64,000 nt of DNA from positions 15,598 to 79,597 of the forward strand of contig CAYHDT010000002.1 of NCBI GenBank assembly GCA_964355655.1, in the 5' to 3' direction. The translations under genes and the position numbers were made by a program. Under the pieces are notes generated by a model. That model did not search any database, had not been told where the DNA came from, and saw nothing but the letters and a program-made list of their open reading frames with translations. This document shows positions 13,168-35,953 of this stretch, piece by piece. Positions within the stretch are counted from its first letter, which is position 1, and each line of letters opens with the position of its first letter. This stretch comes from an uncultured Candidatus Saccharibacteria bacterium (GTDB lineage: Bacteria > Patescibacteriota > Minisyncoccia > Phycocordibacterales > SBAW01).

Positions 13168-14379
13168 ATGTTTCTGGGGGATAAGAAAATATCACGCAAA
13201 CCTAAAGTGTTTGTAGGTTTAAGCGGCGGGGTGGACTCGGCTGTTTCAGCCGCTTTGCTGCAAAAAGAGGGCTACAATGTGACCGGCGTTTTTATACGCA
13301 TCGCAATCGACGGCTACCCGTGTACCGCCGGAGAAGACAAGCTTGACGCCATGCGTGTCGCGGCGCATTTAAAAATACCTTTTCGTACAATTGATTTGTC
13401 GGAAGAGTACAAAAAGAAAGTTTTTGATATTTCAATAAAAGAATTTGAGAAGGGGAGAACCCCAAACCCCGATGCGTTGTGTAACCGTGAAATAAAATTT
13501 GGCCTCTTCTTCGACTGGTGTATGGAGCAGGGCGCCGCCTTGGTCGCTACGGGGCATTATGCGCAAATTGCTCCAGCAAAATCTGTCCAGAAAAAGGTCC
13601 TCGGGTCTCCTGTCTCGGCCAAGACGGAAGAGGCCGGCAGGCCAGACCATTTTTCTAAACAGATTTTGCTTCTGGCTGGTGCAGATCCCGACAAGGACCA
13701 GTCTTACTTCTTGTGGGCCGTACCCGAAACAAAGCTGCGTAAAACGCTGTTTCCTGTCGGGAATTTAACTAAGCCGGAGGTGCGCAAACTGGCGACAGCG
13801 TTTGGTCTGCCGAATGCCGCTCGGAAAGACAGTCAGGGACTCTGTTTTCTTGGGCCTGTATCGATGGACGATATGCTCCGGCAGGAACTAGCACTTGTCC
13901 CCGGTGATGTGATTGATATGCAAGGCGCCCCCATAGGCCGGCACGAAGGCGCGGCCGCCTATACGCTCGGCCAGCGGCACGGGTTTGAGCTTAATGCTCA
14001 TACTCCCGATATTCGACCTCACTTTGTGGTGGCAAAAAATGTCGCGGCAAACACTATTACCGTGTCTACCGAGCGGTTTCCTCAATCTGCGACAGAAACA
14101 CAAATCGAGTTAAGCGATACTAATTGGATAGGGCCTTACTCCGCTGAAGCTACGGAGGGCAAAAAGCTTGCAGCAAGGTATCGTTATCGGCAAAAGCTTA
14201 TTCCGGCTGAGGTAGATTTTGACAAAAGCATCGTTACACTTTTTGAGCCGCACTTTGTGCCGGAAGGCCAGTCGCTTGTTTTGTACGACGGGCAGCGGTG
14301 TCTCGGCGGCGGTGTTATACTAACTGCCAAGTATGGCGATATTCATCGCGAAAGCGGACGGCACGCAAGAGCCGTATAA
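13168..14379 (+). CDS. mnmA: tRNA-specific 2-thiouridylase MnmA
   Basis: PP-loop VFVGLSGGVDSAVSA, catalytic CNREIKF region, and GLCFLG motif. Start chosen at MFLGDKK. Confidence 0.9.
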   Translation: MFLGDKKISRKPKVFVGLSGGVDSAVSAALLQKEGYNVTGVFIRIAIDGYPCTAGEDKLDAMRVAAHLKIPFRTIDLSEEYKKKVFDISIKEFEKGRTPNPDALCNREIKFGLFFDWCMEQGAALVATGHYAQIAPAKSVQKKVLGSPVSAKTEEAGRPDHFSKQILLLAGADPDKDQSYFLWAVPETKLRKTLFPVGNLTKPEVRKLATAFGLPNAARKDSQGLCFLGPVSMDDMLRQELALVPGDVIDMQGAPIGRHEGAAAYTLGQRHGFELNAHTPDIRPHFVVAKNVAANTITVSTERFPQSATETQIELSDTNWIGPYSAEATEGKKLAARYRYRQKLIPAEVDFDKSIVTLFEPHFVPEGQSLVLYDGQRCLGGGVILTAKYGDIHRESGRHARAV

Positions 14380-15175
14380 TCCGGAAAAACTTGTTTCCTC
14401 ACTCATGCGCGCCGGCGCTGAACAGCAATTGGCCCGCGATATTTCCCGCGCCGTCGAGTCGGAGCTCTACGCGGGCATTACCACTCAGGAGATTTACCGG
14501 CACGCTTTTTCCAAACTGCGCGAGTCCAGGCGGGGAGCGGCCGCCCGTTACAGCCTAAAGCGCGCGATACTTGAATTTGGCCCGTCCGGATTTCCCTTCG
14601 AAGCTTATATATCGGAGCTTTTCCGCGCCGAAGGAGCACAGACGCAAATAGACCAGATAATTAAAGGAGCGTGCGTCGAGCACGAAGTCGACGTAGTTGT
14701 GCATCAAAACGGTGCGATAACCTACGTGGAGGCAAAATTCCACAACGCGGCCGGTTTTAAGACAGACCTGAAAACAGTTCTGTATGTTAAAGCGCGCCTC
14801 GATGATATTGCCGCGGCCCGCAAACAAAGAGGTTTGCACGAGCCCATGCGCGGGTTGGTGGTGACTAACACCAAATTTACGAGTGTTGCCGCACAATACG
14901 CTTCTTGCGCCGGGGTTGAAATTTTGGGATGGGAAGAGCCGGACGGCAAAACTCTCCACGACCGCATAGACGCGGCCGGATTGTACCCCGTAACGGCGCT
15001 CACAACGCTCAATCGGCGCGAAAAAATAGCTCTTCTTAGCCAAAAAATAGTGCTCTGCAATGCGCTGGGCGCAGACACCCGGGCTCTTGCCAGGACCGGT
15101 ATAACGGGACAAAAGGCCGATCATGTGTTGGAAGAGGTGGGAGCCTTGTGCGTACCGGGTAAGGATATAGAATAG
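14333..15175 (+). CDS. ATP-cone domain fused to an Mrr-like (PD-(D/E)XK) restriction endonuclease domain
   Basis: N-terminal ATP-cone (MAIFIAKADGTQEPYNPEKLVSSLMRAG...). Mrr_cat-like core VDVVVHQNGAITYVEAKF. Overlaps the mnmA 3' end by 47 nt. Confidence 0.65.
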   Translation: MAIFIAKADGTQEPYNPEKLVSSLMRAGAEQQLARDISRAVESELYAGITTQEIYRHAFSKLRESRRGAAARYSLKRAILEFGPSGFPFEAYISELFRAEGAQTQIDQIIKGACVEHEVDVVVHQNGAITYVEAKFHNAAGFKTDLKTVLYVKARLDDIAAARKQRGLHEPMRGLVVTNTKFTSVAAQYASCAGVEILGWEEPDGKTLHDRIDAAGLYPVTALTTLNRREKIALLSQKIVLCNALGADTRALARTGITGQKADHVLEEVGALCVPGKDIE

Positions 15176-18862: not shown

Positions 18863-20794
18863 TTACCAAACCTTGGCGCGGGAGGAGGGCTCGCGGTAGA
18901 GCTTGTCTCCTTTTTTAACGCCGAACGCCTGGTAAAACGGATCGAAGTTGGAGAGCGGGCCGTTGACGCGCCAAAAGCTTTCAGCATGGGGGTCGGTCAG
19001 GGCGGCGAGTTTTTTAAACTCAGGCCGCGCGACCTCCCGCTCCATTTGCGCGTAGCCAAAAAAGAAACGCTCTTCCGGCGAAAGGCCGGCGATAGTTTTG
19101 CGGCCCGCTTTTTTAAGATGCCGCTGGTATGCTTCGTACGCGATTACCAACCCGCCCATATCAGCCATATTCTCGCCGAGCGTTAGCTGGCCGTTGATAT
19201 GCACGCCGGGCTCTACTTCAATTTTGTTCGCCTGCGATACAAACAATTTGCTCTTTTGCATAAAGCGCTTGCGATCTGCAGCAGTCCACCAGCTTTTCAT
19301 ATTGCCTTTGGCGTCAAACTTCGAGCCTTGGTCGTCAAAGCCGTGCGTTATCTCGTGGCCGATGACCGAGCCGATGCCGGCATAATTGATCGCCATGTCA
19401 GCACGCGGGTCAAAGAACGGCCATTGTAAAATAGCGGCAGGAAAAACTATTTCATTGAGATTCGAGTGGTGGTAAGCATTGACCGTTTGCGGGTACATAA
19501 ACCACTCGGCGCGGTCTATCGGCTTGCGCAGCTTACTCATCTGCTTGCGGTGGTGCCACTGTGCCGCCCGCAACATGTTGCCGAAATAATCGCCCGAATC
19601 TATCGCCAGCCCTTTATACCTCTCCCACTTGGACGGGTAGCCTATTTTGCGCGCCATGGCGCGCAGTTTGATTACCGCTTTGCGCTTGGTGGGGAGAGAC
19701 ATCCAGTCGAGATTTTTTATATGGCTTTCATAAACGTCGAAAAGGTCGCTTACCAATGCGTCCATGGTCCGCTTAGAGGCCGCGGGGAAGTGACGTTTGA
19801 CATACAGGGCCCCAAGCGCTTCGCCGACGGCGCTGGTGCTTCCTAGCGCCCGGCGCCATGGCGCGCGCATCTTTTTTTGCCCGGTAAGCACGGAGGTATA
19901 TTTGAAATTTTCTTTAATAAACCGCGACGAGAGCAGGGAGGAGGTGCCGCTTATGACGTGCCACTCGAGATACGTCTTCCAGTCTTCAAGAGGAATGGTC
20001 TCAAGCATTGTGCTTACTGTTTTAAAAAAATTCGGCTGGCCGACAATGAGCGTTTTGATGCCCCGCGCATGAGTGCGGGCGAAGTAGGCGGCCCAGTCAA
20101 CCTGGGGCGAAAGCTTTTGCAGCTGCGCGACGCTCAACTTGTGGTACACCTTTTCAGAATCACGGGTGTCTTCCTGCCGCATTGAGGCTTCTGCCAGAGC
20201 GGTCTCTATCTTCATGACCGTTTTCTGCGCGCCCGTAATGCGGCTGGGGTCAAAAGCGGCGAGTTTCAGCAGTCGACCAATGTATTCAATATAGGCGGCG
20301 CGCACGCGTTTTTGCTCGGGTGCATCAAGCAGATAATAATCGCGCTCGGGCATCCCCAGGCCCCCCTGCCATAGATGGAGCAGATATTTCGAGGAATCTT
20401 TGGCGTCCTGGTCGACTACGCTGCCCCAGCAGCCCGAGACGCCGAGCACGTGCAGCCGCGCGATAACCCCCAGCAGGTCTTCTTTGGTCTTTATATCGCG
20501 CACCAGCATGCGCAGCGGAGCCATCGGCCCCATGTCGAGTTTGTTGCGGGTCTTCATGTCGATAGCGGAGCAGTAGATTCCGCTTACCAACGGGTGCTTT
20601 GTGCCCGTGACTATTTTTTTGAGCTGCTGCTCGGTCCGGTAGCGCAGGGCCGTAAAGGACCCCCAGCGCGACTCCTCAGGTGGAATCTTCGTCCTCTTAA
20701 GCCAGCTGCCGTTGGTGTAATGATAGAAATCATCCTGCGGCCGCACCGAGCGGTCGATGTCTTTCGTATCAAATCCCCAGTACTTTTTAGTCAT
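18863..20794 (-). CDS. pepO: M13-family zinc metalloendopeptidase (PepO/neprilysin-like)
   Basis: HEITH zinc-binding motif (VIGHEITHGFDDQG). Length and overall layout typical of M13. Confidence 0.85.
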   Translation of the reverse strand: MTKKYWGFDTKDIDRSVRPQDDFYHYTNGSWLKRTKIPPEESRWGSFTALRYRTEQQLKKIVTGTKHPLVSGIYCSAIDMKTRNKLDMGPMAPLRMLVRDIKTKEDLLGVIARLHVLGVSGCWGSVVDQDAKDSSKYLLHLWQGGLGMPERDYYLLDAPEQKRVRAAYIEYIGRLLKLAAFDPSRITGAQKTVMKIETALAEASMRQEDTRDSEKVYHKLSVAQLQKLSPQVDWAAYFARTHARGIKTLIVGQPNFFKTVSTMLETIPLEDWKTYLEWHVISGTSSLLSSRFIKENFKYTSVLTGQKKMRAPWRRALGSTSAVGEALGALYVKRHFPAASKRTMDALVSDLFDVYESHIKNLDWMSLPTKRKAVIKLRAMARKIGYPSKWERYKGLAIDSGDYFGNMLRAAQWHHRKQMSKLRKPIDRAEWFMYPQTVNAYHHSNLNEIVFPAAILQWPFFDPRADMAINYAGIGSVIGHEITHGFDDQGSKFDAKGNMKSWWTAADRKRFMQKSKLFVSQANKIEVEPGVHINGQLTLGENMADMGGLVIAYEAYQRHLKKAGRKTIAGLSPEERFFFGYAQMEREVARPEFKKLAALTDPHAESFWRVNGPLSNFDPFYQAFGVKKGDKLYREPSSRAKVW

Positions 20795-20904
20795 TGTGCT
20801 ACATCATAACAAAAAACACTCTCTGTTGCTCGGGAATGGATTGACAATAAGGCATTTTCTATTTAAAACTAAAGCAGGATCATGCTCTTTGAGAGGAGTC
20901 TGCA

Positions 20905-21660
20905 ATGGCAATCTATAAGGGTTCGACGGCGCAATGCCTCCGGCATTTCGCCCAGGCCGACTTTGAGGGCGATAAGCGGCGGGCGCTTATGGAGTTTGCC
21001 GGCGTTACGGCCAATTCCACAATCCGTCGCTGGCTCAACCAGGGGGAACTCCCTGCCGGGGAGCAGCTTCTGCGGATGCGCCATTACCTCGAACATCTGG
21101 GCTACGAAGTAACCGAGCTCCGCAAGCTCACGCCGTCTGTGCGCGAACTCGGGCGCCTCATTGCGTTCAACGTGCTTCCGATTGCGCAAGCCGCGGCAAG
21201 GATAGGCGTCCCTCCCGCCAAGAAGGGGGGCGGACAGCTCACGACCATCCTCTTGGGCGGTCAAGGAGTTTCGTCCGAGCGGAACAGCAGAATCGCAGCG
21301 CTTAATGCGGAGTTCAGCGACCTGCTCAAGAAGCAAGTCGCAAAAGTTCCGCATCTCACGCTTCGCGGTAGCAATAGCGCCGGCCCCGCTTCGGTGTCAG
21401 TACACCGTGCCGATCCGACTGTTCAAACGGAACAGCCTATCGACAAAGACAGCCTGATGAAAGGCTTTGCGCATATGGTGCAAGGGCTGCTTCATCAGTC
21501 GGACTTCATGCTTTCGGATGCCTTTACGGCAGACGACAGGGACAAAGTTCGGCAACTAACCGGAGGGGACGGGATATTCCTCCTTTCCAACCGACTCAAC
21601 CGTCTTTGCGGCGAGCGTGCTCGCCGCGAGATATCCAACGCTTCGGGAGACAACAAATGA
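20905..21660 (+). CDS. XRE-like HTH domain protein (251 aa)
   Basis: HTH-like segment LMEFAGVTANSTIRRWLNQGELPAGEQLLRMRHYLEHLGY. Its stop overlaps the next start (ATGA). Confidence 0.5.
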   Translation: MAIYKGSTAQCLRHFAQADFEGDKRRALMEFAGVTANSTIRRWLNQGELPAGEQLLRMRHYLEHLGYEVTELRKLTPSVRELGRLIAFNVLPIAQAAARIGVPPAKKGGGQLTTILLGGQGVSSERNSRIAALNAEFSDLLKKQVAKVPHLTLRGSNSAGPASVSVHRADPTVQTEQPIDKDSLMKGFAHMVQGLLHQSDFMLSDAFTADDRDKVRQLTGGDGIFLLSNRLNRLCGERARREISNASGDNK

Positions 21661-23348
21661 CGAAGAACACCAGCGAGGTGAACTTCAGCCAAGGAAGGGC
21701 TCTTTGCAAGATTGCAGGGGAATACCCGACTTTGTATGAAGTCATTATGGAGTCAGTACAAAACGCCATTGACGCGGGCGCGACCGACATCGAAATCTTG
21801 CTCAATCGCAAGAACTGCAACATCGTCATCCACGACAATGGCTGCGGCGTCGGCATGGCCGACTTTCAAAACGCGCTCAATCGCGTCTGCGAGTCGGTTA
21901 AGGAGCGGGGCAAGCTCGGCCAGTTCGGCATCGGGCTTATCTCGCCTCTCGGCAAATGCGCACGCTTTACCTTCACCTCTTGTCCGAAGGGTCTTGCGGC
22001 GCCGTATGTCGAGTGGACTTTCGAGACCGAGAAAATCCGCGAGCAGTCCGACCAGGTTACCGTGCCTCATCGGACGCGCAACGACCTCGTGCATGTCTCC
22101 GGACATGGTGGCGGCCATCGGCGCGGGATTACCCCCGTTGAATGGCGGACCGAGGTCGCGATCTACGGCTACACCAAGGACAAGGTCGTCAACCGCATCC
22201 AAGGTGCCGACGCTTTGCTTGAAGGCATTACCGAGCGTTATGGCGCCGCCATGCGGCGCAATGATGTCAAAGTCGGTATCGCCATTATCAACGAGGACGG
22301 CACCCAGGATCTGAAGACCGGCAAGGCCAAACGGTGGAGCGGAAAGAAGCTGGAAGAAAGAAAGGTCAACAACTATCACGGAGGCGACACCACCGTCCGG
22401 CTCTACCTGGCCAAGAAAACCGACAAAGGCTATCAAGGCCAGGTCATGATGGGCGAGGCGGACAACGACTTCCGTATTCGTCTCTCTCAGTTCGGCAAGT
22501 CTGCAGGGCAGCTTATCGACGCTGATGTCGTCGAGGTGCTGTCTTCCGGAATTTTTGAGGGGGAAATCCTCACTCAAAAAGCCCGGCTGCATGAGAACCG
22601 GCGCAGCTTCGTCCAAAACGAAGGCCTGCTCGGCTTCTGCGAGGGTATCGACGAGTGGTTTCGCCAGCACGGCAAACGCTACTACGACGATGCTCAGGAG
22701 CAGCAGGAGGACCAGCGCTACCAGGACTTGGGGCTGCGGTCGATGAAGAACATCGAGTCGCTGCTCCGCGATCCGATGTTCGCTGATGTGCTGGATGTCG
22801 TCGGCAAGTTCAAGCGCGGCAGCATCGGCGATGGCCATCAGGCCCCCGCCGGCGCCTCCGTCTTGGGCAAGCAGAAGGAGAAGTCGATTGCAATCGGAGG
22901 AAACCCCAACGGCCATGAGGGCTCCGATACAAAAGAGCGTCAGCCGGCTGAGAATCTATCGAACCATCATCCCTATACGGTCGCCGGTCCAAGTGGCCGG
23001 CACCGCACTGTGGTGAAGTCCGACAGTCTCGGCCTGCAGTTCTCCCACACCGCTATGGAAGGGTCGGATAAGTTGTTCGTGCTGGATACCCTCAACGGCA
23101 TCCTGCACTTCAACATCCGACATCCGATATGGGTGGCGTGTGACCGCGATGGCAAGGGCAACCGGGAGATCATGCAGCTCCAGGAATTCGTCACCATTCA
23201 GGCCCTCCTTTTGGAGACCCGGCCGGACGAATGGCGAAAAGTCAACGACTTCTATGTCGAAGACATGCTCAAGCCGATGGCGCACCTCATTTGCATGAGC
23301 GGCGCCTATCGGGTTATCGGCCGTCCAGCCAAGGCTGCCGAGAATTGA
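21658..23348 (+). CDS. GHKL-superfamily ATPase (HATPase_c / MORC-MutL-Hsp90-like Bergerat fold), 563 aa
   Basis: N-box ESVQNAIDAG, G1 box DNGCGVG, G2 box GQFGIG. The C-terminal roughly 350 aa are uncharacterised. Translationally coupled to the upstream HTH gene. Confidence 0.7.
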
Positions 23349-23373
23349 GCGACTTCTACGACAACCCCGCGGG

Positions 23374-23402
23374 CCCCGGCACCAGTGCCGGGGCTTTTTT
23401 AT
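23374..23402 (+). terminator. Intrinsic terminator
   Basis: CCCCGGCAC-ca-GTGCCGGGG followed by CTTTTTTAT. Confidence 0.7.
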
Positions 23403-23478
23403 ATCTATTGACGGCGCGATGTTTATTTAGTATGTTGCGTTTAGTAGCGTTTTTTTGACTGCAACCAGGGAGGCCTAT

Positions 23479-23958
23479 ATGGCCAAGCGGATTATCAAGG
23501 CTGACTTGGAGAAGGCTAAGGCAGCCGTTCTCTCAAGCCAGAAGGCCGATTACGTGTCAATGAAGACGGTCCTCGGGACCAACAGCATCAGCCACATCAA
23601 GCGCGCCCTCGAGAAGCTCGCCAAGCAAGGCGTCGTTGCTCAGGGCAAGCGCCGGCGTTGGCTGGTGTTGCTCAACCCGGACGGTACCAAGAAGGAAGGC
23701 ATCGTTCTGCCGCCCAAGAAGCGCCGGCGCAAGATTCGGCGCAACCGCAAGGCGGCGGCGAAGCCGGCGAAGGTTGCGGCAGCTCCTGTCCGCCGCCAGC
23801 GCAAGTTCAACGGCGTCTTCACGATGGAGCAGAAGCTCAAGAAGATCCACCAGATGACGGTCGGTGCGGGGCCCAACAGCACGACCCTCCTGCGCTCCAT
23901 TGCCGAGGATGTTTCGGCAGCTTATGTGGCCGGGGTGCACCCGGCACTCAAGGACTAA
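23479..23958 (+). CDS. Lys/Arg-rich small protein, possibly DNA-binding (histone H1-like or winged-helix N-terminus)
   Basis: Start preceded by a GGGAGG Shine-Dalgarno. Central KKRRRKIRRNRKAAAKPAKVAAAPVRRQRK tract. Confidence 0.45.
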   Translation: MAKRIIKADLEKAKAAVLSSQKADYVSMKTVLGTNSISHIKRALEKLAKQGVVAQGKRRRWLVLLNPDGTKKEGIVLPPKKRRRKIRRNRKAAAKPAKVAAAPVRRQRKFNGVFTMEQKLKKIHQMTVGAGPNSTTLLRSIAEDVSAAYVAGVHPALKD

Positions 23959-23967
23959 TCTCCAAGA

Positions 23968-23999
23968 CCGGCCCGCACCTCGTGTGCGGGCTTTTTTTA
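23968..23999 (+). terminator. Intrinsic terminator
   Basis: GCCCGCACctcgtGTGCGGGC followed by TTTTTTT. Confidence 0.7.
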
Positions 24000-24028
24000 T
24001 TGCATGAAATGCGGTACTTTTAAGCACA

Positions 24029-25867
24029 ATGACTCCGAATGAGGTTCGCAGGAAATACTTGGAATTTTTTAAAGCGCGCGGGCATGTGGTCATCCCGTCG
24101 GCCCCCTTGGTGCCCGAAAACGACCCGACGACGCTGTTTACCAGTTCCGGTATGCAACCGCTGGTGCCATATCTCCTCGGACAAAAACACCCGTCCGGCA
24201 AGCGCTTGGTGGACCTGCAAAAGTCGGTCCGTACCGGCGATATAGAAGAAGTGGGAGACAATCGGCACCTGACTTTTTTTGAAATGTTCGGAAACTGGTC
24301 CTTGGGCGACTATTTTAAACAGGAACAACTGCCGTGGGTATTTGAACTTTTGACTAAAGAATTAAATCTCGATGAAAAACGTTTGTGGGTGACTTGTTTT
24401 GAGGGCGATGCGTCGCTTAGCATACCTAAAGACACCGAGTCCGCGGAGATATGGAAAAGTCTCGGGATTCCGGAGGAACGCATACATTTTTACAATGCCA
24501 AGAAAAATTGGTGGAGCCGAAGTGGTACGCCGGATAAGATGCCTGTCGGCGAACCAGGCGGGCCGGATTCTGAAGTGTTTTATGAATTTACGCATATCGA
24601 ACATAAGCCGGAGTTTGGCGAGCGGTGCCACCCAAACTGTGACTGCGGCCGGTTTGTCGAGATAGGCAACTCCGTATTTATGGAGTACATAAAAAAAGAA
24701 GACGGCTCTTTTGGAAAGCTGGCCCAGCGCAATGTCGATTTTGGCGGCGGATTTGAACGCCTGGCGGCCGCTATCAATAACAGCGACGATGCATACGCCA
24801 CCGGCGCTTTGCAGTCTGAAATTAAAAAGCTCGAGGAGTGGTCGGGCAAAAAATACAGCGACCCGCAATATATAAAAGCTTTCCGGGTTGTTGCAGACCA
24901 CGTGCGCGCGGCGGTGTTTTTGATAGGGGACGGCGTGCGACCGGGCAATGTCGAGCGTGGGTATGTGGTGCGCCGACTCCTGCGCCGCGCGGTGCGGTTT
25001 TCCGATGTGTTGGAAGTGCCCGCTGGCAATTTAAAAAATCTGGTCTCTCTTGTCGCTGAAGATTACAAAGCCAGCTACATCAATATCACCGAGCAGTCCG
25101 CAAACATAACTCAGGAAATAGGGCAGGAAGAGGAACAATTTAGAAAAACGTTGGAGCGCGGGATGAAGGAGTTAGCACGGTTTATTCAAGGTGGTTCGCT
25201 TTCTGCGCGAGACACATTCCAACTGGTGACAACCTATGGCTTTCCCATAGAGCTTATTGCCGAAGAGGCGGGGCTGAAGGGGATTAAACAAATAGATTTT
25301 GAAGGTTTTAAAGAATTGCTCAAAGAACACCAAAATCTTAGCCGCGCGGGGAGCGAGCAGAAGTTTAAGGGCGGCTTGGCTGATACTAGTGAGAAGACGA
25401 CACGCTTGCATACCGCGCACCACCTTCTGCTTAAAGCCCTCCAGCAGGTGCTGGGGCCCGAAGTTCATCAGCGGGGCTCTAACATCACACAAGAAAGATT
25501 GCGCATAGACTTTAGTTACGGGCAAAAGATGACCCCGGAACAAAAGGCCGAGGTGGAGCGCATCGTGAACGAAAAAATTAAAGAAGATTTACCAGTGGTG
25601 CGTACCGAGATGGCTCTTGCCGAGGCGGAAAAGTTGCATGCCGAGCACGAGTTTGGCGCAAAATATCCGGAACGTGTATCAGTTTATTCTGTCGGTCCGC
25701 TGGACAACGCTTTTTCGATAGAATTTTGCGGCGGCCCGCATGTGTCCAGTACGGGTGAGCTCAGTAAGTCAGACTTACTGGGGAAGTCTGACTTACTGAA
25801 GTTTAGGATTTTGAAAGAAGAAGCGGTGGCCCAAGGCGTGCGTCGGATCAAGGCAATACTCCAATAA
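24029..25867 (+). CDS. alaS: Alanyl-tRNA synthetase, short form (catalytic, tRNA-binding and editing domains; no C-Ala domain)
   Basis: KYLEFFKARGHVVIPSAPLVPENDPTTLFTSSGM N-terminus. Editing-domain HxxxH (HTAHHLL) and CGGPHV. Only 612 aa. Confidence 0.9.
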   Translation: MTPNEVRRKYLEFFKARGHVVIPSAPLVPENDPTTLFTSSGMQPLVPYLLGQKHPSGKRLVDLQKSVRTGDIEEVGDNRHLTFFEMFGNWSLGDYFKQEQLPWVFELLTKELNLDEKRLWVTCFEGDASLSIPKDTESAEIWKSLGIPEERIHFYNAKKNWWSRSGTPDKMPVGEPGGPDSEVFYEFTHIEHKPEFGERCHPNCDCGRFVEIGNSVFMEYIKKEDGSFGKLAQRNVDFGGGFERLAAAINNSDDAYATGALQSEIKKLEEWSGKKYSDPQYIKAFRVVADHVRAAVFLIGDGVRPGNVERGYVVRRLLRRAVRFSDVLEVPAGNLKNLVSLVAEDYKASYINITEQSANITQEIGQEEEQFRKTLERGMKELARFIQGGSLSARDTFQLVTTYGFPIELIAEEAGLKGIKQIDFEGFKELLKEHQNLSRAGSEQKFKGGLADTSEKTTRLHTAHHLLLKALQQVLGPEVHQRGSNITQERLRIDFSYGQKMTPEQKAEVERIVNEKIKEDLPVVRTEMALAEAEKLHAEHEFGAKYPERVSVYSVGPLDNAFSIEFCGGPHVSSTGELSKSDLLGKSDLLKFRILKEEAVAQGVRRIKAILQ

Positions 25868-25898: not shown

Positions 25899-26306
25899 TT
25901 AACCCGCACTTTCGCGCGGAGGAGCAGGAAAGAGGGCGGCACACAGTGCATCGCCGACTTCGTTGCAAAGCGTTCCGCAGGCCTCCAGCGTACTGCGCGC
26001 GTCCTGATTGGCTGCAAATCCGAACACTCTGGTAAAAGCAGCCAATTCGTAGGGCTTTGACCATCCGAACGGCGCGGTATGTTCAAGAAGGCTGACGTCT
26101 TCCTGTAAAGATACGCGGTCGGCATCCGTGAGTCGGATAGTCTTGTTCAGCAGCCCTTTCGTATGGTTGAGGAACATGTCGCGCTGTCCTTCGCCGGCCG
26201 GTGCCGCGACCGCATACACCGCATATCCGACCGTGACCACCAGAATTTTGGCGGAAACGATGCCTAACGCAAGATATTTCAATCCCACACCAAGAGTAAG
26301 GGACAT
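25899..26306 (-). CDS. Hypothetical small protein with an N-terminal TM helix
   Basis: ORF only. Position fits a convergent terminator. Confidence 0.35.
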   Translation of the reverse strand: MSLTLGVGLKYLALGIVSAKILVVTVGYAVYAVAAPAGEGQRDMFLNHTKGLLNKTIRLTDADRVSLQEDVSLLEHTAPFGWSKPYELAAFTRVFGFAANQDARSTLEACGTLCNEVGDALCAALFPAPPRESAG

Positions 26307-26434
26307 TACAATCTCCTCTGTTATACCGGATACTCCGGCGACTAACTCCCCACACTATACACCCCCTATTTTTTGATTGAAATGAAGTCTCAAATAAGCC
26401 TTTATTTAAGGTGTTTTTAACCCTTTCGGAGCCC

Positions 26435-26463
26435 TTGACATAATTAGCACTATAGTGTAAATA
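26435..26463 (+). promoter_or_regulatory. Sigma-70-like promoter TTGACA-N17-TAAATA ahead of a ~115 nt structured leader
   Basis: Perfect -35. The leader contains TTGAC-N12-GTCAA and a GCCGCTCC-accc-GGAGCGGC hairpin. A strong RBS AAGGAG precedes ATG 26585. Confidence 0.45.
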
Positions 26464-26584
26464 CACAGATGGAACGGAGTGGGGGTAAAACGCCATTTCC
26501 ACCGGTTCGTTGACAACCTCATAACAGTCAACAAAACAGTTCAACCGCCGCTCCACCCGGAGCGGCAAAGCCAAGGAGATACTC

Positions 26585-27991
26585 ATGGCCCCTCAGGCCG
26601 CTACCACGCTTACCAAGGGCGGATTCGCTGAGTCGCAAGTCTCGCTTGCGGCGATGGAAACCGCGATGGCCGGCTTTGAACGGACGACACTGGCTGATCT
26701 GCTGACACAGCAGGAAACGCTGGTGAAACAATCCAACGAAGTCGCTCAGCTCGATGATGCGGGCGTGCGCGCGGCGCGCCAGGAGATCATCGACTCCAAT
26801 ATGGAAAAGCTCGCCGCAAAGATCGCCGCATACCGCGACGATACGGCCGAGCTCATCGCCGGACTCGAAGCTCAGTTCGAAAAGCTCGGAATGGATTTCT
26901 CGAACTTGCAGAAGCCGACGGCCGAGGACCTGCAACTCATGCAGACGGCTGAAACCTATCTGAAGCAGCTCGTGGAACTCGACGGTCCGACGGCCCGTGC
27001 GCTCTTGGTTCAGGCTATCGCCGACGCCAAAGGCAGTTGGAACCCGATCGGCAGGGACGCGCGCGTTCTTGACGCGGAAAAAGCTCTCGAGGCGTTTGAC
27101 ATCCAACAGGCGACGGATGTCGTCGCGGCTAAGACCGCCGTGGAAGAGACCAAGGCCGAAGTCCAACGGTTGCGCAATAAGCGCATTCGTGAAGCCGAGT
27201 TTGACTCGCAGTTCGAACGCTTTATCGCGTTCGCGCAGCAGATCATGCAGAAGCTTCTTGAAAACGTCCGCAACAGCGAGGTGCGGATGAGCGAGACCCA
27301 GAAGGCCTTCAACGATTCCCTTGTCCAAAAGGAGAAAAAGGCCGCTCAACTCAATAACCTGGACGTCAAGATCAAGCAGGCCGAAGACGCCGTCATGACG
27401 CTCCAGACAGAGCTGGGCAGTGCCGTCGATCAAGAAGCACGCGCACGTGTGGAAACCCGCTTGGGTGCGGCGAACCAAATCCTCGCCGATCTCAACGGCA
27501 CGAAGCAAGAGACTCAAGTGGCCCACAACGCCCTTGAGGCTGCTGCCTCCAAGCACGAGAAGATGCTGGCGACCCTGCAGGTGCAGCGCGACAATCAGCG
27601 GGCACATGCGGTCAAGCTGAACATCGACTCGAGGTCGCGGTTCACCCAGGCGCAAAATATCGTCAGGATTATCCAGAACACCACGCAAGAAGACGCCGCT
27701 TCGCGGCTTCATGTTGCCGGTTCGTCTCTGGACAAGATCGGTCTGGAGCTCTCGGTGCGGGCGCTTATCGCGTCTGAACGGGAGCGGCTGAAGATGCTGA
27801 CCGGTCATGAGGCCGATATGAAGCGGTTCGACGTGATCGGCGGTGCCCTCGCAGAGGGCCGCGCGCAGATCGCCATCGAAGACGCGGAGATCGCGGCTCG
27901 TATGCGTCAAAACTACGGCATCGATCCGCTCAAGGCCAGTTGGCTCCATGTTGCAGAGGGTATGGGCAACTCCGGCAATCCGCCAGCTTAA
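26585..27991 (+). CDS. Coiled-coil protein (468 aa), hypothetical
   Basis: Ala/Glu/Gln/Lys-rich with heptad-like periodicity throughout. The antisense ORF 26528-27949 is rejected as a shadow ORF. Confidence 0.6.
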   Translation: MAPQAATTLTKGGFAESQVSLAAMETAMAGFERTTLADLLTQQETLVKQSNEVAQLDDAGVRAARQEIIDSNMEKLAAKIAAYRDDTAELIAGLEAQFEKLGMDFSNLQKPTAEDLQLMQTAETYLKQLVELDGPTARALLVQAIADAKGSWNPIGRDARVLDAEKALEAFDIQQATDVVAAKTAVEETKAEVQRLRNKRIREAEFDSQFERFIAFAQQIMQKLLENVRNSEVRMSETQKAFNDSLVQKEKKAAQLNNLDVKIKQAEDAVMTLQTELGSAVDQEARARVETRLGAANQILADLNGTKQETQVAHNALEAAASKHEKMLATLQVQRDNQRAHAVKLNIDSRSRFTQAQNIVRIIQNTTQEDAASRLHVAGSSLDKIGLELSVRALIASERERLKMLTGHEADMKRFDVIGGALAEGRAQIAIEDAEIAARMRQNYGIDPLKASWLHVAEGMGNSGNPPA

Positions 27992-28029
27992 CCCGCTTCG
28001 TAACAGGGTTACGCACTACTTATCTACAA

Positions 28030-28058
28030 GGGCGCCGGATCCCCGGCGCCCTTTTTTC
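28030..28058 (+). terminator. Intrinsic terminator
   Basis: GGGCGCCGGatccCCGGCGCCC followed by TTTTTT. Confidence 0.75.
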
Positions 28059-28089
28059 TCTCCCGGCTAGAACTAGAAAGGAAAAGACC

Positions 28090-29172
28090 GTGCAAACTCA
28101 AAATAATGACGCGGTGCTTTTGGTCAATACCGGCGATGGACGCTACGCGCGTTACTTTGCCGAACTTGGCCGAGCACTCGGCATGGTCTCGTCTTGGGCT
28201 AAGCAGTGGTCCGGAGGGACGCTTGACGCATCCCAACACACAGACTATCTGCGCGGCCTTGTAGCATGCTTTAACATGCTACAGAGCCGGTTCAATTTCG
28301 AGACCAGCGACCCACTCATGGTGGATCTGTCCAACTCCGGATTTCCGCACGGCTATATGTTGGCGCGGATAGCGGCAGATAGGGCGGAGGCAACAGCCGA
28401 GCATCTCAAAGGAGACGCTTTCGGTCCGACCCAGCTCAAGCAGGTCTTCTTAGACGACTTGTTTGCGAGCGGCTCGGTTAACCAAGCGCTGCTCAACAGG
28501 ATCGCGTGCGCCAAATATGCCGAGGTGGTAACCGCCATGGACGTGGCGTTCGACCCTCGGTTTATGTGCGGTAAACCGCAAAACGGGACCGCTGATAAGC
28601 GGTACCGACTGCAGTGGAGCACGTTCGACCCGGCGCTTAATCTGCCGGTGTTGTGCGGCATGATCTTCGAATACGGAGGGCTCGATTTAACCCGGACCCT
28701 TGAGGGATTGAAGCTCGTGCTTAAGTATGAGACCAAGGCCGGAGTCTCGGTCGCGGCGCTCGCGCACAACATCGACACCGGTGTTGCGGATATCCGCGTT
28801 ATTGCCCTTAGTCGGGCAATCATGGGTCCTCTGCATTTGCCCGGCCTTACCGATCAAAGCGCTCCGTGCGCATTACCGAGCGTCAAGCTCGGGGAGGATA
28901 TCGTGGTTGATATAACCGTCGATCATACTCATTCGGTAAGCATCAAAAAGCCGACCACGCTTGCGGTGCGGTTTGGAGTAAGTCCGGCCGAACAACAAGT
29001 GTACTCGATTCGCACCGCAGATCCGCTGTGCTACATGCGGGGAGCGGATGCGGTCGAACGTATCGTTATCCTGCCGCACCGCATGCTGCAAGGCATGTCT
29101 GCGGCGGACAAACAAGACAGCATGGGCGAGTTTACGCTCGTGCCTTACATCAAGGAAGGAGAACTTCAGTGA
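28090..29172 (+). CDS. Hypothetical protein (about 360 aa), first gene of a three-gene operon
   Basis: GTG start 8 nt after an AAAGGAAAAG RBS. No recognisable domain. Its stop overlaps the next start (GTGA). Confidence 0.5.
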   Translation: MQTQNNDAVLLVNTGDGRYARYFAELGRALGMVSSWAKQWSGGTLDASQHTDYLRGLVACFNMLQSRFNFETSDPLMVDLSNSGFPHGYMLARIAADRAEATAEHLKGDAFGPTQLKQVFLDDLFASGSVNQALLNRIACAKYAEVVTAMDVAFDPRFMCGKPQNGTADKRYRLQWSTFDPALNLPVLCGMIFEYGGLDLTRTLEGLKLVLKYETKAGVSVAALAHNIDTGVADIRVIALSRAIMGPLHLPGLTDQSAPCALPSVKLGEDIVVDITVDHTHSVSIKKPTTLAVRFGVSPAEQQVYSIRTADPLCYMRGADAVERIVILPHRMLQGMSAADKQDSMGEFTLVPYIKEGELQ

Positions 29173-31091
29173 ACGGGAGCTCACGAGTGGAGATCAAGGA
29201 GAAGCAAATCGCAGAAAAACTGCGTAATGCCGACTCCTTGGTAACGAAAGCGGAGTGGCAGCCGCGAGCAAGTGCTCCTCCTCCGGGGGAGTTACATCGC
29301 CAGCGGTTGCTCAACCAAGTGCAACCGATGCCCAGCGCCTCGCTCCAAGAGAGCCTCAAGCTTGTCCGCAAAGACGGCTCGGCTATCTTGGGCGGCATGG
29401 AACATCGAGTGCTGCATGGAGTCCGTCACGGCATCCAGATAGCTCTGGCTGCGGCGGACGAATATCGGCGTCTGACCGGCATCGATCAGATGGGCGACCT
29501 CTCAAACCTGAGTACGGATAAACGGTCCGAGATTCAGGACAAGATGCGCACTGCGTCAGCCATCGTGCTCTTTACGCTGGCGCGCTTCGTCGAGGAAGGT
29601 CTCGGTGAAGTCAGTGACGAGGACGCGCACCGGGAGCACGTAATGCTTCCGGAATGCGTCTTCGACGAGCCGATTACAGCCCTGCGCTGTATCATCTTCT
29701 ATCTGTGTGCCAACCTCGCACACCCGAAGGTTAACAACGACAAGGCCCTCGGGGCTACGGTAGGAGTCTTCTTCGAGAAGGTCATAAGCGAGATTGAAAC
29801 CCGCAAAGCGACCTTCATGCACCTCGAGCAGTTCCAAGCGATCTCATTCGGGGTCGAAGGGAGCGAGTTCACGATCGAGGGACTTGTGCGCCACGACACC
29901 GGTGTCGTGAGCGTGGAATTTAAACGGAAAGAGCTTTCCGAAAACGTCGGCAATGCCGACGCCAAGCACTTCATTCGGCGCCTTGCGCGCCGTTTGGTAA
30001 GCTATAATCCGAAAGAAAAGAAAAATGTCTTCATGGAATTGGGCGGTATTATGGACCCGTGGATGGGCTACGGCAAGCCGGGTACCGGCAAGTCGGACCT
30101 CATCGCGATCCTTGCGACCATGCTCGATGATCTGTGCAAGGCGCGTAAAATACCGTTCCTGTTCAATCCGTTGCCGGACAATCTGATCGATTCGTATCAG
30201 GGCAACTCGGCCCGAAACATGGTCAAGTGGATGCTGCAGATGCAGGCGACCGATAAGATCGTCTACGCATCTATCGACGACGCCGAAAACGTACTCGAGG
30301 AGAGGACCCGTCAGGGCGTCTCCGAAGGTGTGCGTGCCGTTATCGGAGTGTTCCTCCGCTATACGGAAGGCGCCTATGCGATACGCCGGGGCAACTCGAC
30401 GATCGGCATCATGACCAATCTGCCCGAGCAGCTCGACGCAGCCGTTCGCTCCCGGGTACAGGGACGGATGGTCATCGACGGCTTTAAAACTGTCGAGGAT
30501 GCGCTCGATCAGTCTCATCTGTGGTGGAAGAAGCGGTACGGCGGACAAGAAGGATTCGTAAATCTCAAGGACCCCACCGCTTACATGTATCAGAGCGCCC
30601 AAAAGGAGCTCAAATCCGCCGCCGAGGCAGCGCAGACCCGCGACTCTCCGGAGCACGGGATTATGAAAGATATCTTTGAGCGCGTGCTCAAGGAAAACGA
30701 CCCCGAAAGCCACGAGTTCATTGCAAAATGGATGGTGGCGGTCATGGAACGGTACCCCGCGTTCTCTTCGCGAGACATGCGGAATATCCACTCCGCGGTG
30801 GACCTTCGCGTCATGGATTTCGATATCCCCGACCGTTGGTTCGAACCCGCGACACTGGGTGAGTTTCATGACCAGCCGTACGAGCAACAGCTGGGGATGG
30901 TCAAAGAACTTCGCACCGCCAATATGAAGGGGCTGAAGTTTGGCGACATGCTCCGGCAGGAAAGCGTGCGGTATCTCGACAACTACGCTCTGATTGCCGA
31001 TGCGCAATTCGACCGCGAGGTCGACGAGCGCATCAAGCAAATCCGGATCGAGCAGGAAGTCGAAAGACGTCTGCGGCAAAAAGCCGCGTAA
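29169..31091 (+). CDS. Classical-clade AAA+ ATPase with a long N-terminal extension (about 640 aa)
   Basis: Walker A GYGKPGTGKS, Walker B IVYASIDDAE, sensor-1 IMTN, SRH-like LDAAVRSRVQGRMVIDGF. GTG start overlapping the upstream stop. Confidence 0.65.
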   Translation: MNGSSRVEIKEKQIAEKLRNADSLVTKAEWQPRASAPPPGELHRQRLLNQVQPMPSASLQESLKLVRKDGSAILGGMEHRVLHGVRHGIQIALAAADEYRRLTGIDQMGDLSNLSTDKRSEIQDKMRTASAIVLFTLARFVEEGLGEVSDEDAHREHVMLPECVFDEPITALRCIIFYLCANLAHPKVNNDKALGATVGVFFEKVISEIETRKATFMHLEQFQAISFGVEGSEFTIEGLVRHDTGVVSVEFKRKELSENVGNADAKHFIRRLARRLVSYNPKEKKNVFMELGGIMDPWMGYGKPGTGKSDLIAILATMLDDLCKARKIPFLFNPLPDNLIDSYQGNSARNMVKWMLQMQATDKIVYASIDDAENVLEERTRQGVSEGVRAVIGVFLRYTEGAYAIRRGNSTIGIMTNLPEQLDAAVRSRVQGRMVIDGFKTVEDALDQSHLWWKKRYGGQEGFVNLKDPTAYMYQSAQKELKSAAEAAQTRDSPEHGIMKDIFERVLKENDPESHEFIAKWMVAVMERYPAFSSRDMRNIHSAVDLRVMDFDIPDRWFEPATLGEFHDQPYEQQLGMVKELRTANMKGLKFGDMLRQESVRYLDNYALIADAQFDREVDERIKQIRIEQEVERRLRQKAA

Positions 31092-31106
31092 GAAAGGGAG
31101 CCAAGC

Positions 31107-32372
31107 ATGCCCATCATGCATGAGCTTATCGAAGCGGGGTTGTTCGGCCGGGGACTTATCCCGGTCGACAACCCGATTCTGGTGGCGCGCTACAACGCGT
31201 GCCTCAAGGACATGGGTCTTGTGCCCACGCGATTGAAGCGTTTCCAGCTCGACAAAATGGGCTGGAGCCCCGAAATAGCGGCCGAGCAAGGCCATGATTA
31301 TTATCTATCGCACGGGGACGCAAATCCTCTTGCGATAGTGTTGGTCCCCGAGCAGAGCAGCTCGAAAGTCCCCATCTATTATCCGTTCCACTCGTACGAT
31401 TGGGATCTGATGGGAGCCTGGGGTACCGCAAACCGGACACCTATCTTCGAGTTAACCAAGGACACGGCGATCTGGCTCGATATTGATCAAGAAGTTGATC
31501 TTTATCAGACGCCGGCAGATCTGCGCAGTGTATATGAAGTTATCGTGCGTGCACACACGCCCGACAACATCATCGGAAAAGCTATCGAACAGCGTGATCT
31601 GGTTACCGAGTTCATCCGCAAGGAGGATTCGCATCAGGATATGGCGCTGATCGAGAAAATCCGGGATAGCCGCGAACGGGTCGGGGACCTCCAAAACCGG
31701 AGTCTCATAATCCGAGACTACACTTTTACCGACGTGCGCAACTTCTACTCGCGTGCGTTCGGCGGAGTGTTCGTACTCCGTTCTAGAGACGGCGAGGCTC
31801 TAATCTTCTGCCGCGACCCGAAGGTCGCCAAGAAGCATGGTCTCCTCGTGGCAAACACGAGCGCGCTCGATACGCTTATCGAACACGGGTATGCCGAGCG
31901 AGATACCGCCTGGTGGAGGGACAATCTCTATCGCCTGCGGATCATTGCGGAGTCGTTTCTGATGGAGGTGCTGGACGAAGAGGAACCGGAACTTGAGTTT
32001 CTCTCGCTTAATCGGGCGGAACAAAAGGCCGTCGTTCAAAAGTACGGTGACCAGCTCGGGATGTATGTGCAGCTCAACCGCTTAATTCGAACACTCGAGC
32101 AAGGCAAAGAACCTGCTGCGGTGCCGCCGGCAGTGGCCGACCTTCTGGTGCATCCGTCTCATGACCTGACTCCCGTATCGCGGGAAGTCGTGGGACAACT
32201 GCTTTCGTATATTTACGGCGGCAGGCTGGTACCGCTCTTCTACAGGCACCAGAAGACGGCGTTCGTCTCCAAGTACACACGGGTTTGGAAGACCCCTCGC
32301 AGACAGTGGGCCCTGGAACGCATCCGGGAGCACTACGATCTCGCAAGCAAGTCCTCCAACATCCCTTCGTAG
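31107..32372 (+). CDS. Hypothetical protein (421 aa), last gene of the operon
   Basis: AAGGGAG RBS. A weak GxxG...LDID arrangement, not convincing as a nucleotidyltransferase. Confidence 0.5.
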   Translation: MPIMHELIEAGLFGRGLIPVDNPILVARYNACLKDMGLVPTRLKRFQLDKMGWSPEIAAEQGHDYYLSHGDANPLAIVLVPEQSSSKVPIYYPFHSYDWDLMGAWGTANRTPIFELTKDTAIWLDIDQEVDLYQTPADLRSVYEVIVRAHTPDNIIGKAIEQRDLVTEFIRKEDSHQDMALIEKIRDSRERVGDLQNRSLIIRDYTFTDVRNFYSRAFGGVFVLRSRDGEALIFCRDPKVAKKHGLLVANTSALDTLIEHGYAERDTAWWRDNLYRLRIIAESFLMEVLDEEEPELEFLSLNRAEQKAVVQKYGDQLGMYVQLNRLIRTLEQGKEPAAVPPAVADLLVHPSHDLTPVSREVVGQLLSYIYGGRLVPLFYRHQKTAFVSKYTRVWKTPRRQWALERIREHYDLASKSSNIPS

Positions 32373-32394
32373 TTCTTTCGTTCCAACAGTCAAA

Positions 32395-32426
32395 CATGGA
32401 AGGTACCCCCTTCCATGTTTTTTTAT
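32395..32426 (+). terminator. Intrinsic terminator
   Basis: CATGGAAGG-taccc-CCTTCCATG followed by TTTTTTTAT. Confidence 0.75.
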
Positions 32427-32511
32427 TATATGGTATAATTGAGGCAGACTAGAAAGCCCAAAAAAGGCTTACGGCTCTTCAAAATATCAAACTCTCACAA
32501 GGAGAAATACG

Positions 32512-33114: not shown

Positions 33115-33117
33115 ATG

Positions 33118-34820: not shown

Positions 34821-34856
34821 AAGCGCAAAGTTCTTTCGTCCGACCTCAAACAGCTG

Positions 34857-34888
34857 GGCGCCTCTACCAAGAGGCGCCTTTTTCTTTT
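34857..34888 (+). terminator. Intrinsic terminator
   Basis: GGCGCCTCtaccaaGAGGCGCC followed by TTTTTCTTTT. Confidence 0.7.
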
Positions 34889-35943: not shown

Positions 35944-35953
35944 TTAATATGTA

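Follow-up and report, generated by a model that had tools for sequence, protein, structure and literature searches.

What is a compact unit of three genes doing between pepO and alaS in an uncultured Candidatus Saccharibacteria bacterium, and could it be a defence system? Patescibacteria are tiny episymbionts for which few defence systems have been recognised (PMC12366544). The stretch of DNA analysed here, referred to as the window, is 64,000 nucleotides long. It contains three open reading frames, g1, g2 and g3, all on the + strand between pepO, whose product is an M13 peptidase, and alaS, whose synteny is conserved with tRNA-synt_2c loci. An earlier note on this DNA had described them as a terminator-bounded set made up of an XRE-type helix-turn-helix (HTH) protein, a GHKL ATPase and a basic protein, and had proposed a new defence or regulatory system. 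The three genes lie where that note had placed them, and the features of the locus are listed in Table 1.

Table 1. Features of the pepO-alaS insertion, in window coordinates.
Feature	Position	Strand	Description
Insertion relative to nearest relatives	20795..23995	.	~3.2 kb; bears g1-g3, promoter-like sites and terminators
Possible g1-g2 promoter	20841..20868	+	TTGACA/16 nt/TAAAAC; by-eye reading only
g1	20905..21660	+	251 aa; N-terminal ~150 residues HTH-like, variable linker, conserved C-terminal helical domain ~180-250
g2	21657..23348	+	563 aa from ATG; Bergerat fold ~1-180, S5-type transducer ~185-310, long helix 322-383, C-terminal domain 388-547
Intrinsic terminator closing the g1-g2 operon	23371..23402	+	11-bp stem, 8 GC pairs, T run
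Candidate g3 promoter	23408..23436	+	TTGACG/17 nt/TATGTT; 9/12 matches in consensus scan; consensus match only
g3	23479..23958	+	159-aa basic protein; weak N-terminal winged-helix signal, KKRRRKIRRNRK run, C-terminal helical part
Intrinsic terminator 3' of g3	23970..24000	+	right edge of insert; 9-bp stem, 7 GC pairs, T run

The region between pepO and alaS is a variable hotspot, and the three genes sit on an accessory insertion within it. DNA alignments place the left edge of the insert at the pepO start codon and its right edge just past the g3 terminator, some 35 nt before the alaS ATG. The distance from pepO start to alaS start is 40-60 bp in two close relatives (L071 and L072, alaS 86% identical) and in more than 15 further relatives. 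The pair g1-g2 shows a presence/absence polymorphism, and at this site it is missing from the nearest relatives, whose alaS identities are 86, 80, 77, and 72%. Other relatives carry different cargo in the gap, including RelB/YafQ toxin-antitoxin pairs, a DinG helicase that matches a type IV-A CRISPR-associated model, and further unknown genes. The insert edges were searched for an integrase, a transposase, and convincingly long flanking repeats, and none was found. The only repeat is an inverted one of 12 nt, perfect, across the two start codons; by our estimate, about 0.4 such matches are expected by chance. The module had been called GC-richer by eye. This is true (0.579 for the insert vs. 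0.538 for the window) but the excess is mild. The gene GC z-scores are +1.05 for g1, +0.82 for g2, and +1.74 for g3, and the sole outlier is the GC3 of g3 (0.82, z +2.4). The strong terminators reported after g2 and g3 are confirmed by folding, with hairpins of -21.7 kcal/mol (z -3.0) at 23371-23396 and -17.4 kcal/mol (z -4.7) at 23970-23992. The possible promoter of g1-g2 went unreported by the consensus promoter scan, which requires a T at the last position.

The g2 protein belongs to the GHKL+S5 ATPases of MutL/MORC/SMCHD1 type; it also has a long helix and a C-terminal domain without any known match. It matches Pfam HATPase_c_3 with E=4e-14 and 53 bits (cutoff 25). Its fold matches GyrB, Hsp90, and MutL, which places it in the GHKL (Bergerat-fold) superfamily, and the S5 domain 2-like transducer that immediately follows the ATPase marks it as a MutL/MORC-type GHKL+S5 protein. 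The nearest folds are those of SMCHD1, MutL, and MORC. The N (E32, N36, D39), G1 (D60, G62, G64), and G2 (G88-G93) boxes, which the earlier note had called complete, were traced through 31 homologues: there is no variation at E32, N36, D39, G62, G64, G88, and G93 and almost none at D60. The C-terminal domain has a beta-plus-helix make-up and is family-specific. The C-terminal half used as a profile against PDB and Pfam returned no match, in line with the earlier picture of a MORC-like ATPase with an unknown second half. Conserved C-terminal residues are N486, H489, Q509, E510, R450, and H394. A sensor histidine kinase was considered for g2 and rejected: the ATPase starts from residue ~20 with no domain upstream, the S5 transducer follows it, and no receiver domain is found in g1 by Pfam or in its AF2 model.

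The stop codon of g1 overlaps the start codon of g2 at AAATGACG (ATGA), as had been noted. The assignment of g1 as an XRE-HTH protein is weakly supported. Its Pfam matches to HTH_17 and MerR are both below cutoff, and one homologue has a faint HTH_3 match. A family model built from 10 sequences matched an XRE protein in the PDB (3op9, E=3e-4) and the P22 C2 repressor (0.05); a database search with the g1 profile returned at least 7 proteins. The AF2 model of g1 is wholly helical with a pLDDT of 80. Foldseek with this model gave no significant fold match; ClgR and C.BclI were matched locally but without significance. Across g1 homologues W43 and R212 are invariant and R216 and L234 are nearly so. 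The window and locus L001 are 36% identical in g1, 62% in g2, and 63% in alaS, and by these identities g1 evolves much faster than g2. In both, the module occupies the same site and g2 has diverged as much as alaS, which also fits long vertical inheritance.

The conserved unit is g1 plus g2, and the partnership is essentially obligate. In 63 of 65 loci the gene immediately upstream of g2, on the same strand, is a g1 homologue; of the other two loci, one is at a contig edge and one has a truncated gene. The same arrangement is found in five more loci (L067-L070 and L151). The pairing is kept down to 26% g2 identity (about 65 complete loci), with a spacing that ranges from an 8-nt overlap to ~60 nt, and g1 without g2 was found in none of 80 related alaS control loci. 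The g2 family comprises about 424 clusters at E<=1e-30, uniformly 550-590 aa long, among 1.84 billion representatives, and 62 loci among 185,579 species genomes. All of its named sources are Patescibacteria-type MAGs, and the family is apparently restricted to Patescibacteria so far. The flanks of the pair differ in nearly every locus, and most are ordinary housekeeping genes (clpP/tig, rpsB/tsf, and RNase Y/HU in L067-L070) rather than defence islands. Relatives of g1-g2 were sought in phage and plasmid collections without a match; the sole IMG/VR match is flanked by genes of cellular appearance (ThyX, dUTPase, sulfatase). The g1-g2 family was not found described in literature searches. The module is accessory and is not CPR housekeeping: it is absent here from the nearest relatives, and one genome (L053) keeps a 5'-truncated remnant with the g2 C-terminus alone. 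The earlier note had named a common CPR housekeeping role of the GHKL protein as one outcome that would undo its proposal, and the absence from the nearest relatives speaks against such a role.

We tentatively favour the reading that g1-g2 is an accessory, Patescibacteria-restricted, paraMORC-like module for DNA-directed conflict or defence, and we put this a little short of an even chance. The HTH region of g1 would bind DNA and its C-terminal domain would bind g2 to form a complex. In a g2 dimer, the N-terminal ATPase gates may shut on ATP binding in the manner of MutL and MORC, and DNA would thereby be trapped or remodelled. The C-terminal domain, with its conserved residues, may hold the dimer together or carry an effector activity. 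The target of the module would be foreign or selfish DNA, which would put it among the paraMORC-type conflict or defence modules, together with GHKL-Shedu and the GHKL ATPases found in restriction-like systems. In favour of this reading are the g1-g2 pairing, the invariant ATPase motifs, the discreteness of the family, its accessory status, the fast evolution of g1, and the precedents of paraMORC and GHKL-Shedu. Against the conflict reading, the pair encodes no recognised effector such as a nuclease, methylase, or helicase. The unmatched C-terminal domain, the partial PADLOC matches described below, the housekeeping flanks, the lack of phage or plasmid relatives, and the equal divergence of g2 and alaS at the site shared with L001 are further observations on the side opposed to conflict.

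An unlikely alternative is that g1 only controls transcription, like the C-protein of a restriction-modification system or an XRE repressor, and that g2 is self-sufficient and forms no complex with it. The local resemblance of the g1 N-terminus to XRE repressors and to C.BclI/ClgR fits this, as does its fast evolution, and a position upstream of g2 with an overlap is typical of controller genes. However, g1 is three times the typical controller length and has a second conserved domain at its C-terminus, where R212 and the nearly invariant R216 and L234 lie. The pairing also shows no loss over the whole range of g2 identity, which is stricter than is usual for dispensable regulators.

It is distinctly less probable that g1-g2 serves lineage-specific chromosome maintenance (DNA repair, compaction, or segregation) and replaces MutL- or SMC-like functions in reduced genomes. 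The fold relationship of g2 to SMCHD1, MutL, and MORC, the housekeeping flanks, and the equal divergence of g2 and alaS between the window and L001 would all suit such a role. A maintenance function is, however, hard to reconcile with the four identity levels at which relatives lack the pair, the rarity of the family among species genomes and sequence clusters, the truncated remnant, and an insertion site shared with toxin-antitoxin cargo.

We consider it very unlikely that the pair is an addiction or mobile-element maintenance system, in which g1 would be the XRE-type antitoxin or repressor of a toxic GHKL protein and would secure post-segregational persistence. The HTH-first order with overlapping stop and start codons is typical of type II toxin-antitoxin pairs, RelB/YafQ pairs occur in the same hotspot, and the distribution is accessory. 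On the other side, the insert edges are free of an integrase, a transposase, and convincingly long repeats, and a remnant that keeps the g2 C-terminus alone is unlike antitoxin retention. To our knowledge, no toxin has the fold class and size of g2.

The third gene, g3, is probably a separately transcribed basic protein of DNA-binding type and an optional neighbour of the pair. It is highly basic, as had been claimed (pI 11.4, 24% K+R, KKRRRK at residues 80-85). Its likeliest start is the ATG at 23479, 6 nt 3' of GGGAGG; the alternative TTG at 23455 is less likely. It has a weak HTH_Crp_2 match (E 0.02) and no match in PADLOC. A terminator and a promoter-like site separate it from g2. Homologues of g3 stand next to the pair only in L001/L002 and L005, which are the closest lineages (60-62% g2 identity), and a further homologue in L080 lies beside other genes on a contig that ends 1 kb upstream. 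It diverges far faster than g2 (26% vs. 62% identity to L001). The neighbourhood survey proposed in the earlier note therefore has a split result: the HTH-GHKL partnership is conserved, while the basic protein accompanies it only in the closest lineages. Sequence-unrelated proteins with a K/R run and the same layout occur within 800 bp of the pair in ~10 of 60 loci (~15%) and are rare elsewhere, so a basic protein is a recurrent optional neighbour and is not part of the core. The three K/R-run families have no homology to one another detectable by hhalign. It is most improbable that the HTH, GHKL, and basic proteins form one obligate system of three genes, and this reading is largely refuted. 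In its favour, the window, L001/L002, and L005 all have g3 after the pair, and the three basic families recur near it. On the other side, no such neighbour is present in at least 50 loci, a promoter-like site and terminators of its own set g3 apart, the three basic families are not detectably homologous, and the L080 homologue stands among other genes, though near a contig end.

Other proteins associate with the pair elsewhere. A 100-aa protein, g0, precedes g1 in ~40% of loci and is absent from this window; its profile returned nothing from PDB or Pfam, and neither g0 nor the other associated proteins matched PADLOC. A protein of 293-347 aa with a DGxHR motif, found near g0-like genes, was considered as ParB-like, and this was unsupported by Pfam and PDB profile searches. 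Repeats in L081 were considered as a CRISPR array and proved to be hairpins with irregular spacing. With these neighbours in mind, it is conceivable, though rather improbable, that the pair is a Patescibacteria-specific, MORC-like core for DNA-trapping immunity or silencing, in which an ATP-driven GHKL clamp is aimed at foreign DNA by interchangeable DNA-binding adaptors. The adaptors would be the obligate g1 and, optionally, g0, the K/R-run winged-helix proteins, and the DGxHR-motif protein. If true, the system would parallel, in prokaryotes, the partner-recruited silencing by MORC/SMCHD1 in eukaryotes, with a new C-terminal effector or dimerisation domain.

The favoured reading of a conflict or defence module makes g1-g2 a plausible new defence-type module. 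The pair is phylum-restricted and strictly co-inherited, and it has no family annotation beyond the ATPase domain. It lies in a strain-variable hotspot with toxin-antitoxin genes and is a concrete, clonable candidate of two genes and ~2.5 kb. If defensive, it would give the paraMORC-type GHKL systems an HTH-partnered branch whose C-terminal domain is new, and would be a simple bacterial model for the targeting of a MORC/SMCHD1-like clamp by a separate DNA-binding protein. If it is not defensive, what remains is an accessory module for DNA transactions, as yet unexplained, in a phylum that is poorly understood.

How does the pair compare with known systems? The earlier note could name no defence system for it, and PADLOC agrees. 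In PADLOC-DB 2.0, g2 has partial N-terminal ATPase matches only (MzaB 7e-8, TmtA 3e-7, residues ~27-114), g1 has chance-level matches only, and no full system is recovered; the other components of the MZA and TmtA systems are absent near g1-g2 loci. NCBIfam and PHROGs scans of g1-g3 gave generic N-terminal ATPase matches only. The N-terminal ATPase of MutL (LN40) is a further comparison: the best MutL model reaches 36.5 bits on residues 28-76, where the cutoff is 180, and the NCBIfam MutL matches extend over residues 28-80 only. Unlike MutL, g2 has no C-terminal dimerisation/endonuclease domain and no MutS context, and we do not class it as MutL. SMCHD1 and MORC2/3 are related to g2 in sequence only within the ATPase; g2 has no SMC hinge and no CW or other zinc-finger match in Pfam. 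A functional analogy with eukaryotic SMCHD1/MORC may nevertheless be drawn.

The GHKL-nuclease Shedu (VcSduA, formerly paraMORC3) has been shown experimentally to act in anti-phage defence and needs its ATPase glutamate (PMC12137116). It is similar to g2 in size and in its order of a GHKL ATPase, a clamp-like middle, and a C-terminal domain (PMC12137116). The glutamate that it needs corresponds to the invariant E32 of g2. VcSduA differs in that it ends in a DUF4263 PD-(D/E)xK nuclease and acts alone, whereas g2 has an obligate HTH partner. DUF4263 was sought in 14 g2-family C-terminal halves and gave no Pfam match at E<=5; PADLOC gave no SduA match, and the g2 alignment has no conserved D...(D/E)xK pattern, which sets g2 apart from Shedu type I-D/paraMORC3. 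The paraMORC GHKL+S5 proteins, which carry lineage-specific C-terminal domains, work in restriction and defence systems (Iyer, Abhiman and Aravind 2008, PMC2292703). Like g2, paraMORC and prokaryotic MORC proteins combine an N-terminal GHKL domain with intact ATP motifs, an S5 transducer, and a lineage-specific C-terminal extension, and like g1-g2 the paraMORC proteins have a sporadic accessory distribution and a predicted action on DNA that involves their operon partners (PMC2292703).

The interval between pepO and alaS is filled by three plus-strand open reading frames, as the earlier note had claimed. We refer to them as g1 (HTH-like partner protein), g2 (GHKL ATPase) and g3 (basic protein). 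The stop of g1 does overlap the ATG of g2, as ATGA, and the strong terminators described after genes 2 and 3 were recovered. The most likely start of g3 lies six bases downstream of GGGAGG. Because a terminator follows both g2 and g3 and a promoter-like site lies between the two, g1-g2 and g3 look in sequence like separate transcription units. The excess of GC that had been judged by eye is small but real (0.579 for the insert vs. 0.538 for the window), and g3 alone among the insert genes is an outlier in third-position GC (z +2.4).

Features of the pepO-alaS interval in window coordinates
Feature	Position	Strand	Remarks
pepO	18863-20794	minus	Peptidase_M13 match
g1	20905-21660	+	ORF, 251 aa
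g2	21657-23348	+	ORF, 563 aa
Intrinsic terminator after g2	23371-23396		-21.7 kcal/mol
Promoter-like site between the two terminators	23408-23436
g3	23479-23958	+	159 aa from the most likely ATG (23479)
Intrinsic terminator after g3	23970-23992		-17.4 kcal/mol
alaS	24029-25867

The pairing of g1 with g2 extends well beyond the window. From species-representative genomes 62 loci were collected, along with several metagenome contigs, and their ORFs were searched with g1 and g3 profiles and the g2 protein. In 63 of the 65 loci a g1 homologue lies directly upstream of the GHKL gene in the same orientation, and none occurs in 80 control loci of related bacteria, so that the surveyed neighbourhoods of GHKL homologues bear out a conserved partnership. 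The pairing holds down to 26% GHKL identity and recurs in four later loci and in the one IMG/VR locus (L151). The two exceptions are a locus whose contig ends 334 nt upstream (L045) and one with a 5'-truncated GHKL remnant (L053). The remnant (L053 4887-6023) retains the C-terminal ~350 residues, with neither ATPase domain nor g1, inside a 353-kb contig that has no masked bases upstream; it is an apparently decayed copy. L151, a 354-kb contig, is the only match in the viral collection. Its g1-g2 pair has ThyX, dUTPase, sulfatase and glycosyltransferase genes as neighbours, and the contig may come from a cellular genome and not from a virus. g1 may be an XRE-HTH protein, as the earlier note had it: its profile weakly matches XRE-type proteins (3op9, E 3e-4; P22 C2, 0.05) and one homologue has a faint HTH_3 match, but g1 belongs to no Pfam family and its model gave no significant fold match. 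The model consists of helices throughout, apart from a disordered linker, and its C-terminal domain of three helices is conserved.

The g2 product is a complete GHKL ATPase, as had been stated (HATPase_c_3, E 4e-14). In an alignment of homologues its ATP-binding residues (E32, N36, D39, D60, G62, G64, G88, G93) are invariant or nearly so, as are several polar residues in the C-terminal domain (among them R450, N486, H489, W492, Q509 and E510). The AF2 model (pLDDT 84.7) can be divided into four parts: the Bergerat ATPase at the N terminus, then the S5-type transducer, then a ~60-residue helix, and last a beta-rich domain with three helices after it. The C-terminal 245 residues matched nothing in PDB sequences or Pfam. 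A protein search gave 187 relatives, the best 120 of which are full-length matches (36-62% identity, query coverage 86% or more). Where a source is named, it is Parcubacteria, Paceibacterota, Portnoybacteria or Patescibacteria, the sole exception being one MAG labelled Acidobacteriaceae. In an exhaustive profile search, clusters at the 50% identity level numbered 424 for E<=1e-30 and 537 for 1e-10; at E<=0.001 the number leaps to 3,701, the extra clusters being presumably generic GHKL proteins. Family members are nearly all 550-590 aa long, and the family is discrete, with a single fixed architecture. Identification as MutL was rejected (36 bits vs. a cutoff of 180, residues 28-76 only), as were identification as a histidine kinase and, because DUF4263 is missing, as GHKL-Shedu.

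The third protein is as basic as had been described (pI 11.4, 24% K+R, with a KKRRRKIRRNRK run), but it is not a core part of the module, since its homologues follow the pair only in the nearest lineages (L001/L002 and L005). ORFs with K/R runs (at least 7 K/R in 8 residues) do cluster near the pair, no more than 800 bp away, in L001, L018, L022, L026, L027, L032, L034, L005 and the window. Only two lie farther away in GHKL loci, and the 80 control loci have just three, one of them a g3 homologue. These proteins form three families without detectable mutual homology. Another accessory gene, g0, lies ahead of g1 in some 40% of loci and is absent from the window; its ~100-aa product has a conserved SITFSL...W...GWRA core and matched no known family. 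The basic genes of L022 and L034 each adjoin a g0-like paralogue. A protein of 293-347 aa, in which a DGxHR motif is invariant and which has no Pfam or PDB match, is distributed much like the K/R-run proteins. Together with a g0-like gene it forms a mini-module, which stands alone in the pepO-alaS hotspot without GHKL (L079 991-2111, L088 85-1205), divergent to g1-g2 (L047 2960-4026), or downstream of g2 (L035 6747-7790; also L036). Flanking genes are otherwise unrelated between loci. Around the pair there is thus a loose set of accessory genes whose products probably bind DNA.

Relatives were compared at 80 loci fetched via alaS (51-87% alaS identity). The order PDDEXK, MGMT, UDG, pepO, alaS is kept in the two closest (86%) and at least 15 others, with the pepO start 40-60 bp from alaS. 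Neither g1 nor g2 was found in any of the 80, and L080 has a g3 homologue upstream of alaS, beside other genes. In DNA alignments the additional 3.2 kb is bounded on one side by the pepO start codon and on the other by a point ~35 nt ahead of the alaS ATG, directly after the g3 terminator. A perfect 12-nt inverted repeat (AGTCATTGTGCT at 20789-20800, AGCACAATGACT at 24023-24034) spans the pepO and alaS start codons, i.e., both edges; the estimated chance expectation for such matches in the stretch is ~0.4, and in the DNA alignment the sequence is not shared by insert-free relatives. In other relatives the gap carries RelB/YafQ toxin-antitoxin pairs (L079 and L080), the g3 homologue just mentioned (L080), a 293-aa protein gene paired with a g0-like one (L079 and L088), and one further unknown protein (L097). 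In L081 (1727-7417) it holds 5.7 kb of other cargo, including a 644-aa helicase (PADLOC type IV-A CRISPR-associated DinG model, 4e-31) and a YafQ-type toxin gene identical to that of L080. The site is therefore a hotspot at which the module is one cargo among several alternatives. Hairpin repeats in L081 (GGGGCGGG...CCCGCC) were rejected as a CRISPR array, their spacing being irregular. At the site used in the window, L001 has the set g0-g1-g2-g3, with 62% identity to the window in g2 and 63% in alaS. Either the module was inherited from far back and lost many times, or it was captured repeatedly at this hotspot. Identity is 36% for g1 and 26% for g3, which diverge much faster than g2.

A second strain-specific block of ~10.7 kb lies on the far side of alaS (25900-36600); in relatives L071, L072, L075, L078, L084, L087 and L105, the homologue of window ORF 36628-37671 comes immediately after alaS. 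The block encodes two unknown proteins (468 and 410 aa), a 687-aa AAA ATPase, a DUF6638 protein, a 622-aa unknown protein and a patatin-like phospholipase, and could be another accessory or defence-type cluster. A 255-aa ORF at 52751-53518 (GC 0.33 and GC3 0.28, ~5 sd below other window genes; no Pfam match) is probably recently acquired DNA. The ORF at 14333-15175 joins an ATP-cone domain to an Mrr_cat restriction-endonuclease domain, an unusual pairing.

We tentatively read g1-g2 as a conflict module (serving defence or the control of mobile DNA) and not as a housekeeping one, at somewhat under an even chance. The accessory distribution, the hotspot common to toxin-antitoxin and DinG genes, the decayed L053 copy and the fast-evolving partner point to such a role. 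Against it, the pair has no recognisable nuclease, housekeeping genes make up most flanks, and no copy was found in phage and plasmid collections. MutL, MORC and their GHKL+S5 relatives work as dimers: on ATP the ATPase domains close, and DNA or partner proteins are thereby clamped or remodelled (PMC2292703). Because the motifs are intact and the HTH-type partner is obligate and often overlapping, we propose that g1 would bind DNA and engage g2 via its conserved C-terminal domain, and that g2 would act as an ATP-gated clamp on g1-bound DNA. The C-terminal domain of g2 may be a constant dimer interface or an unrecognised effector.

A self-sufficient g2 with g1 as its transcriptional controller only, which partly overlaps the conflict reading, is unlikely. 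A lineage-specific role in chromosome maintenance is doubtful, being disfavoured by the presence/absence data. The gene order would fit an addiction-type cassette, but such a toxin is without precedent and we consider this improbable. The obligate system of HTH, GHKL and basic protein, suggested by the earlier note, is very improbable and largely refuted: its first two members pair almost throughout, but g3 homologues accompany them only in the nearest lineages.

The ATPase class is already known, as is the general theme of an accessory operon in which a GHKL+S5 protein carries a C-terminal domain specific to its lineage. In the libraries and literature searched, we found no description of this family, with its HTH partner, g0, C-terminal domain and restriction to Patescibacteria. 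Few defence systems are recognised in Patescibacteria (PMC12366544), and the module is a well-delimited, testable candidate. Its closest precedents are the paraMORC ATPases of restriction-like operons (PMC2292703) and the GHKL-Shedu protein VcSduA, which guards against phage and needs its ATPase glutamate (PMC12137116).
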